Below the pieces are notes generated by a model, which saw only the letters and a program-made list of their open reading frames with translations, was not told where the DNA came from and made no database searches. From NCBI GenBank assembly GCA_964645535.1, contig CAZYCQ010000024.1:18270-43353 (forward strand): DNA of 25,084 nucleotides. The letters are read 5' to 3'. Of the stretch, positions 1 through 659 are shown one piece after another. The translations under genes were made by a program, and so were the position numbers. Position 1 is the stretch's first letter. Each line of letters opens with the position of its first letter. The stretch comes from an uncultured archaeon (GTDB lineage: Archaea > Asgardarchaeota > Heimdallarchaeia > Heimdallarchaeales > Kariarchaeaceae).

Positions 1-659
1 AACCAATAAAGTAATGCGAAAAAAATTGAAGTAGCAAGGGCAATTTGAATGACAGTTGAATAAGGTCTGTCAAATGGAATTGGAAGTCGAAAGTAGAAGA
101 GAAGGGAGACAATACAATAGATAAGATAAAACCAGATAAAATATGTAGCTTCAATTATTGCAATAGTAAGGCCAATCCCGTAGAGAAACCCTGTAGAAAG
201 GAGTAATGCTTTTTCTGTTTTGTTGGTCATATATGAGAGAGGTGTTTCGCATTTGAGCATCAACTGGAAAAGCCCAAAGAGCCCCATGAAAAAGAGAGCA
301 TGACCCAAGATTTCATCGAGGAAATGAATCAGTGCTCGAAGATCCGATGGAATTGCATAATCATGAACTTCAAAGGCAAATGTGTCTATTGCATTTGCCG
401 TCATGTGCATTGAATGACCCTCAAAAAACAAAAAAAAGAAGATATAGGATAATATTCTCAATTTTTGGGGGATGGGATCTTCCATTGAATTAGCCATGAG
501 AATGAACATGAAAAGAAAAAAGGGACCAAGAAAAACAAGATCAACAAAATCAATCAAACGGAAATTCCAGATCAAGATGTGTCGATTGAAGAAAGTGAGA
601 CCAACAACAGTAACCTGAATCCAGACGAATACCATTGCCAACAAACTTCTTTGATGCAT
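1..659 (-). CDS. Polytopic membrane protein with CLN6-like motifs (3' end runs off the window, >=219 aa; not in the ORF track)
   Basis: Manual translation from ATG 659 is open to the window edge: MHQRSLLAMVFVWIQVTVVG...IDFVDLVFLGPFFLFMF...FFEGHSMHMTANAID...LIHFLDEILGHALFF...IAIIEATYF...FALLYW. It has about 6-7 hydrophobic segments, with GxSxHxxxN and DExLGH motifs. Confidence 0.75.
   Translation of the reverse strand, partial: MHQRSLLAMVFVWIQVTVVGLTFFNRHILIWNFRLIDFVDLVFLGPFFLFMFILMANSMEDPIPQKLRILSYIFFFLFFEGHSMHMTANAIDTFAFEVHDYAIPSDLRALIHFLDEILGHALFFMGLFGLFQLMLKCETPLSYMTNKTEKALLLSTGFLYGIGLTIAIIEATYFIWFYLIYCIVSLLFYFRLPIPFDRPYSTVIQIALATSIFFALLYW

Follow-up and report, generated by a model that had tools for sequence, protein, structure and literature searches.

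A distant CLN6 relative in a Heimdall-group archaeon keeps the catalytic core of the human protein and differs in the substrate pocket

CLN6 is the Batten-disease protein, and before October 2026 it was regarded as a non-enzymatic ER cargo-exit factor. The left end of the DNA analyzed here, a stretch of 25,084 nucleotides from the genome of a Heimdall-group Asgard archaeon (referred to below as the window), carries an open reading frame for a membrane protein with motifs resembling those of CLN6. The locus raises the question of whether this archaeal protein is a true relative of CLN6, and if so, which parts of the human protein it retains and what reaction it could catalyze. A literature search for prokaryotic CLN6 relatives found no paper; the recovered 3' end of the gene, the loss of an acidic residue in helix 1, the named protist homologues and the AU test presented below are new here.

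The preliminary description had pointed to an open reading frame at this end of the window, and the ORF list and the translation confirmed a minus-strand frame at positions 3-659. The ATG start codon occupies positions 657-659, a position that matches the starts of the three nearest relatives; 219 codons lie in the window, at whose left edge the frame runs on without a stop codon. The three strings quoted in the preliminary description were all present in the translation and fell in helices 3, 4 and 5 of the seven-helix model. The gene and the motifs discussed below are as follows.

1-659, minus strand: CLN6-like coding sequence, first 219 of its 232 codons; the other 13 and the stop codon lie beyond the left edge, across a 10-N scaffold gap
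582-593, minus strand: F23-F24-N25-R26, outer end of helix 1
540-560, minus strand: R34-L-I-D37-F-V-D40, outer start of helix 2; acidic residues conserved
384-428, minus strand: quoted string FFEGHSMHMTANAID, residues 78-92
384-419, minus strand: GHSMHMTANAID, helix 3, with H85 and N89
288-332, minus strand: quoted string LIHFLDEILGHALFF, residues 110-124
300-317, minus strand: DEILGH, helix 4, with D115, E116 and H120
138-209, minus strand: quoted string ALLLSTGFLYG..AIIEATYF, residues 151-174
150-152, minus strand: E170, outer end of helix 5

A run of 10 N (L001 1489-1498, contig C24) immediately precedes window position 1, and the heptamer AACCAAT is common to both flanks of this gap (7-nt overlap). 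Recovery of the missing 3' end from the contig had been proposed in the preliminary description, and it was achieved by merging the AACCAAT overlap, which preserved the frame and added FIFGNFIQPSDIF plus a stop codon to give 232 residues. The recovered tail corresponds to the conserved C terminus of the family, FGxFxQPS; because the merged frame ends in this motif, we concluded that an intact gene for 232 residues is present, which the assembly breaks at the 10-N gap. The gene is present as a single copy in the genome.

We compared the protein with the Pfam CLN6 model (PF15156). Unlike human CLN6, the window protein alone scored under every Pfam threshold; it gave no match to PF15156 at E <= 1, below the curated cut-off of 27 bits, and by Pfam's own threshold it is not a CLN6 member. 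Scanning the whole genome for PF15156 returned no match at E <= 10, and none of the five closest relatives, which make up the small clade of the window protein, matched the model. A word-based search identified only three relatives. When a profile built from these three and the window protein was searched against 1.84 billion representatives, 287 proteins were found at E <= 0.001. PF15156 was matched by 26 of the 126 listed profile relatives (each of at least 200 aa, the set used for the conservation counts below), with a best E-value of 5.8e-8, and by 5 of the 30 closest relatives; one Asgard relative exceeded the cut-off with 27.4 bits. Besides PF15156, no Pfam family was matched by more than one of the 126 relatives. 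The hhalign comparison of the window's clade with a PF15156-positive set of eight sequences, six of them with real PF15156 matches, gave a probability of 99.9% and an E-value of 1.9e-34 over 196 columns. The ESM Atlas contained bacterial clusters of the family, one of which carried PF15156 on 12% of its members. Judged from these sequence profiles, homology to the CLN6 family is established. Thus, the Pfam check proposed in the preliminary description gave nothing for the protein itself and a positive answer at the profile level, and the proposal of a prokaryotic, Asgard CLN6 homologue was borne out by the profile relatives, the hhalign result and the identity of the host.

Two preprints dated 9 October 2026 (bioRxiv 10.64898/2026.10.07.757350, 10.64898/2026.10.07.757477) described human CLN6 as a Ca2+-dependent epimerase that converts R,S-glycerophosphoglycerol to S,S-glycerophosphoglycerol and acts upstream of CLN8 and CLN5 in BMP synthesis in the ER. 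In these two preprints, BMP in knockout cells was not rescued by the D59A, D131A, D173A, E174A, H178A or E227A variants, D59E also inactivated the enzyme, and the patient variants H127Y and R62H were inactive. D173 and E174 form the Ca2+ site, while Y182 and Y223 line the pocket. QM/MM calculations in the same work supported His178 as the nucleophile that forms a phospho-histidine, from which the phosphate then passes to that glycerol's other primary hydroxyl. The mapped topology of the human protein is N-in, C-out, and relatives outside eukaryotes are mentioned in neither preprint.

The AlphaFold2 model of the window protein, built on the alignment of 126 sequences, contained seven helices and showed a pLDDT of 94.6 and a pTM of 0.89. 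Among the 30 closest relatives, the mean number of Lys and Arg residues was 9.1 in the N terminus and loops 2, 4 and 6, versus 4.0 in loops 1, 3 and 5 and the C terminus. By the positive-inside rule, this distribution fits an N-in, C-out topology, as in human CLN6. With this predicted topology, the conserved polar residues would all be on the extracytoplasmic side; the outward side of the Heimdall protein is topologically equivalent to the ER lumen side. A profile search of the PDB sequences revealed no CLN6 chain and only chance matches to MthK, and a Foldseek search against the PDB revealed no match at E <= 0.001 (best E-value 1.0). The best VIA-align match, the helical domain of a Cry toxin with a Z-score of 8.2, was rejected, as this value is within the noise range for helical bundles.

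Short human motifs were taken from the CLN6 construct given in 10.64898/2026.10.07.757477 and compared by eye. The human strings given in the preliminary description proved correct, as they can be read in this construct and fit the residue numbers of both preprints. We found that the window protein and human CLN6 had the same motif order: helix 3 contains GxxxH, helix 4 contains DExLGH, and helix 5 ends with G(x8)E. In particular, D115, E116 and H120 of the helix-4 motif DEILGH correspond to D173, E174 and H178 of the human motif DEYLGH, and each of them was invariant (126/126 relatives). In helix 3, H85 corresponds to H127 of the human motif GASIHLVGDSVN; this column contained His in 125/126 relatives, and the G81 column contained Gly in 124/126. 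E170 corresponds to human E227 and was Glu in 116/126, and nine residues before it lies G161 (Gly in 118/126), a spacing identical to that of G218 and E227 in the human protein. The preliminary description had read the His/Asp/Glu/His cluster as a metal-dependent catalytic site; human CLN6, which is Ca2+-dependent and needs D173, E174, H178, E227 and H127, bears this reading out.

Several positions that matter in the human enzyme differed. The position of human D131 is occupied by N89, in a column with Asn in 110/126 relatives and Asp in 16/126, the protists being among the Asp forms. F124 is found at the position of Y182 (Phe in 71/126, Tyr in 24/126), and I166 at the position of Y223 (Ile, Leu or Val in 97/126, Tyr in 3/126). 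At the outer end of helix 1, F23-F24-N25-R26 was paired with human D59-F-G-R62 by helix order rather than by a computed alignment; on this pairing, F23 probably takes the place of D59, with loss of the acid, and R26 probably takes that of R62, with retention of the Arg. The family consensus here is E-L-N-K, with Glu in 46/126 and Asp in 6/126 at position 23, and Lys in 36/126 and Arg in 13/126 at position 26. The helix-1 Glu was lost in a three-member subclade (the window protein, P0003 and P0004), whereas the nearest neighbours keep it. The corresponding protist motifs were E-I-D-K, E-P-D-K and D-S-D-K, all of the acid-x-x-base form. An alternative pairing of human L-D59-F with I-D37-F of the window protein was rejected; D59 lies in human helix 1 and D37 in helix 2, and since in each protein the His-bearing helix is preceded by exactly two others, the two residues cannot be equivalent. 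The segment around D37 is itself conserved, with Asp in 104/126 and Glu in 10/126 at D40, Asp in 91/126 at D37 and Arg in 62/126 at R34; D40 was invariant in the 30 closest relatives. Additionally, the window protein, with 232 residues, has neither the long N-terminal tail nor the C-terminal extension of human CLN6 (311 aa). Taken together, it is a real but distant CLN6 relative in which the catalytic core is kept and the substrate pocket is not.

By analogy with the human enzyme, we consider it fairly probable that the gene product is a 232-residue seven-helix membrane enzyme of the CLN6 superfamily that carries out a metal-dependent, histidine-mediated phosphoryl transfer on a glycerophosphodiester at the outer face of the membrane. 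R26, D37, D40, H85, N89, D115, E116, H120 and E170, located at the outer ends of helices 1-5, would line an outward-open cavity in which D115, E116 and E170 may hold divalent cations around the phosphodiester, as proposed from human CLN6. In a next step, a phospho-histidine intermediate would arise by attack of H120 on the phosphorus, and the phosphate would then return to a hydroxyl of the substrate. Migration or transfer of a phosphoryl group on a head group of the glycerophosphodiester type would be the most likely reaction. Conservation of the core favors the chemistry of human CLN6, and the changes in the pocket speak against an identical substrate; the protein probably acts on a different one, because the residues around the glycerol pocket are not the same, with D131 replaced by Asn, Y182 by Phe, Y223 by Ile and, probably, D59 by Phe. 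The genome contains four GDPD-type glycerophosphodiesterase genes and so handles glycerophosphodiesters. No TLC/CLN8 homologue was detected in this genome, which is 89% complete, and we know of no report of BMP in archaea.

The family profile matched 43 of 301 sampled Asgard genomes, a patchy distribution. Searches of the 10 other genomes of the window's family, three of them from its genus, did not find the gene (genomes 63-94% complete), and in contrast to other prokaryotic CLN6-like proteins, the window copy is the only one found in its taxonomic family. The named relatives were mostly bacterial, from Anaerolineae and Chloroflexia (Chloroflexota), Zixibacteria, Actinomadura (Actinomycetota) and Verrucomicrobiota, and others came from Njordarchaeota and one Nitrososphaerota MAG. 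Compared with the "hypothetical proteins" of Chloroflexota, Zixibacteria, Actinomycetota and Asgard archaea, the window protein aligned over its full length with 31-54% identity to the nearest ones and had the same length, the same motifs and the same FGxFxQPS tail, and it is thus a member of this set. A metagenome scan for closer relatives found none above 42% identity. Some Asgard genomes contained two to four family copies, including adjacent tandem pairs (G294:C107:4868-6517; G100, with 4 matches; G285:C283).

Five eukaryotic proteins were also among the profile matches, with E-values of 1e-24 to 6e-16 (P0042, P0047, P0052, P0064 and P0075). They came from Phalansterium and Soliformovum (Amoebozoa), Guillardia theta (A0A7S4JB05), Amoebidium (Holozoa) and one more EukProt transcript. 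These protist homologues are about 290-330 aa long and have N- and C-terminal extensions like human CLN6, in contrast to the 232 residues of the window protein. Four of the five carried Asp at the D131 position, and one had the human DEYLGH motif. As none of the five matched PF15156 at E <= 0.1, the Pfam model seems to be narrowly metazoan.

The IQ-TREE phylogeny of 62 rows, whose eukaryotic rows were the five protists and no metazoan CLN6, split the family in two with a support of 99/92. Most Asgard copies fell, along with other bacteria, in one group; the second comprised the six-member clade of the window protein, a Njordarchaeota clade and a Chloroflexota/Zixibacteria set. The eukaryotic sequences formed a clade (100/91) inside the Chloroflexota/Zixibacteria set, sister to Anaerolineae-type sequences (98/95). 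An exclusive group of the eukaryotes and the window's clade was 30 log-likelihood units worse and was rejected (AU p=0.007), while a tree in which all archaeal rows were forced together was not rejected (AU p=0.07). Because the latter arrangement stands, a transfer from Chloroflexota to the window's lineage is only suggested. The window copy is within the subfamily that contains the eukaryotes, but, with protists as the sampled eukaryotes, it is neither their sister nor the direct ancestor of the eukaryotic gene. The idea of a eukaryote ancestry, raised in the preliminary description together with a phylogeny to examine it, was accordingly not upheld: most family members are bacterial, the distribution in Asgard archaea is patchy, and the protists group with Anaerolineae-type sequences.

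The remaining genes of the window were also inspected. The following were recognized.

730-1650, minus strand: 306-aa protein, directly upstream of the CLN6-like gene on the same strand, 70 nt away
1783-3831, plus strand: GH31 alpha-glucosidase-family gene, 1.1 kb from the CLN6-like gene
7770-8918: MCP, chemotaxis set
9641-10087: CheW, chemotaxis set
10104-12080: 658-aa CheW-domain protein, chemotaxis set
12460-14244: CheA, chemotaxis set
14256-14870: CheC-like protein, chemotaxis set
within 14876-17632, minus strand: PlsC-type glycerolipid acyltransferase (PF01553, E-value 1.5e-20) and UbiA-family prenyltransferase (PF01040), about 0.7 kb apart
17566-18591: CheB, chemotaxis set
22316-23908, minus strand: DUF58 protein, following the MoxR-type ATPase
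23905-24885, minus strand: MoxR-type AAA+ ATPase

In the 306-aa protein, a zinc ribbon at the N terminus is combined with seven PQGQY repeats in a row and, at the C terminus, a membrane domain of several helices; Pfam matched the zinc ribbon only, and the protein was a neighbour at none of the other 64 loci. Of the genes in this neighbourhood, only GH31 was also present in a same-genus genome (protein identity 44% over 646 aa), which indicates that gene order is poorly conserved in the genus. Across 65 loci, no neighbour family was common to different clades, and no pathway can thus be read from the gene context. The chemotaxis set of this Asgard archaeon extends over 7770-18591. In this archaeal window, a bacterial-type ester-lipid enzyme (PlsC) lies near an archaeal-type prenyl enzyme (UbiA). 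The MoxR-type ATPase and the DUF58 protein (22316-24885, minus strand) form the usual MoxR partner pair.

Against this background, we weighed other explanations for the gene and its product. A true glycerophosphoglycerol epimerase, converting R,S to S,S as human CLN6 does, would agree with the complete His/Asp/Glu core, the retained H85 and the Arg at the R62 position. It would also agree with the place of the window's clade within the same well-supported subfamily (99/92) as the eukaryotic homologues and with the GDPD genes, which indicate that the genome meets glycerophosphodiesters. However, the pocket residues differ at D59, D131, Y182 and Y223, a CLN8-type partner was not found in the genome, and none of the 10 further genomes searched in the family yielded the gene, which argues against a core lipid function; we regard such an activity as unlikely. 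In a second reading, the same histidine chemistry serves an intermolecular transfer or hydrolysis, so that the protein would be a head-group transferase or phosphodiesterase acting on membrane lipids or wall polymers in a manner like that of HKD/phospholipase D enzymes. Water or a second alcohol can release the phosphate from a phospho-histidine just as readily as a hydroxyl of the substrate itself, conservation does not extend to the pocket residues responsible in the human model for folding the glycerol back, and the predicted active site faces outwards. Yet no family member is known to hydrolyze or transfer, and no conserved wall or lipid genes lie nearby, and we judge this reading to be quite unlikely. 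That the protein shares only the fold and is a non-enzymatic transporter or scaffold echoes the view of CLN6 as an ER cargo-exit factor that prevailed before October 2026; it is scarcely tenable, since human CLN6 is now shown to be enzymatic and the D, E and H residues are strictly the same in 126/126 bacterial, archaeal and eukaryotic relatives, as is characteristic of a catalytic or metal site.

It is also conceivable, at very long odds, that the gene has no role in the archaeon at all, being either bacterial and placed with this genome by a binning error, or recently acquired from Chloroflexota and perhaps in decay. That searches of all three same-genus genomes and all 10 other genomes of the family did not find it would fit such a case, as would the placement of the window's clade beside Chloroflexota, apart from most Asgard copies, in the free tree. 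Nevertheless, the GH31 gene only 1.1 kb away had its best DNA match (69%) in a same-genus genome, and the GC content of the CLN6-like gene (36.7%) is within the 36-45% range of the window; on these two grounds, the contig appears to be native to the Heimdall genome. Moreover, the closest named relative belongs to a Heimdallarchaeota MAG of the same order, the frame is intact with all core residues kept, and a single archaeal clade is not rejected (AU p=0.07), all of which count against such an explanation.

CLN6 was given a known enzymatic reaction only in October 2026, and small prokaryotic homologues with the His/Asp/Glu core would be handy for structural work and for putting the proposed phospho-histidine mechanism to the test. 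The phylogeny also concerns the eukaryotic source of the enzyme that sets BMP stereochemistry, as the sampled protist genes sit with Chloroflexota and not with the Heimdall-group copy. A divergent member with an altered pocket argues for more than one substrate in the family. A bolder idea, to which we assign only a slim chance, is that prokaryotic CLN6-like enzymes shift phosphate between the two ends of glycerol in glycerophosphodiesters, whether free or in the membrane, interconverting sn-3 (bacterial-type) and sn-1 (archaeal-type) glycerol-phosphate forms, and that the eukaryotic BMP enzyme is a bacterial, Chloroflexota-like acquisition of the same chemistry. If this were true, this Heimdall-group archaeon, whose window also encodes a PlsC-type acyltransferase, could cross the "lipid divide" after its lipids have been made.
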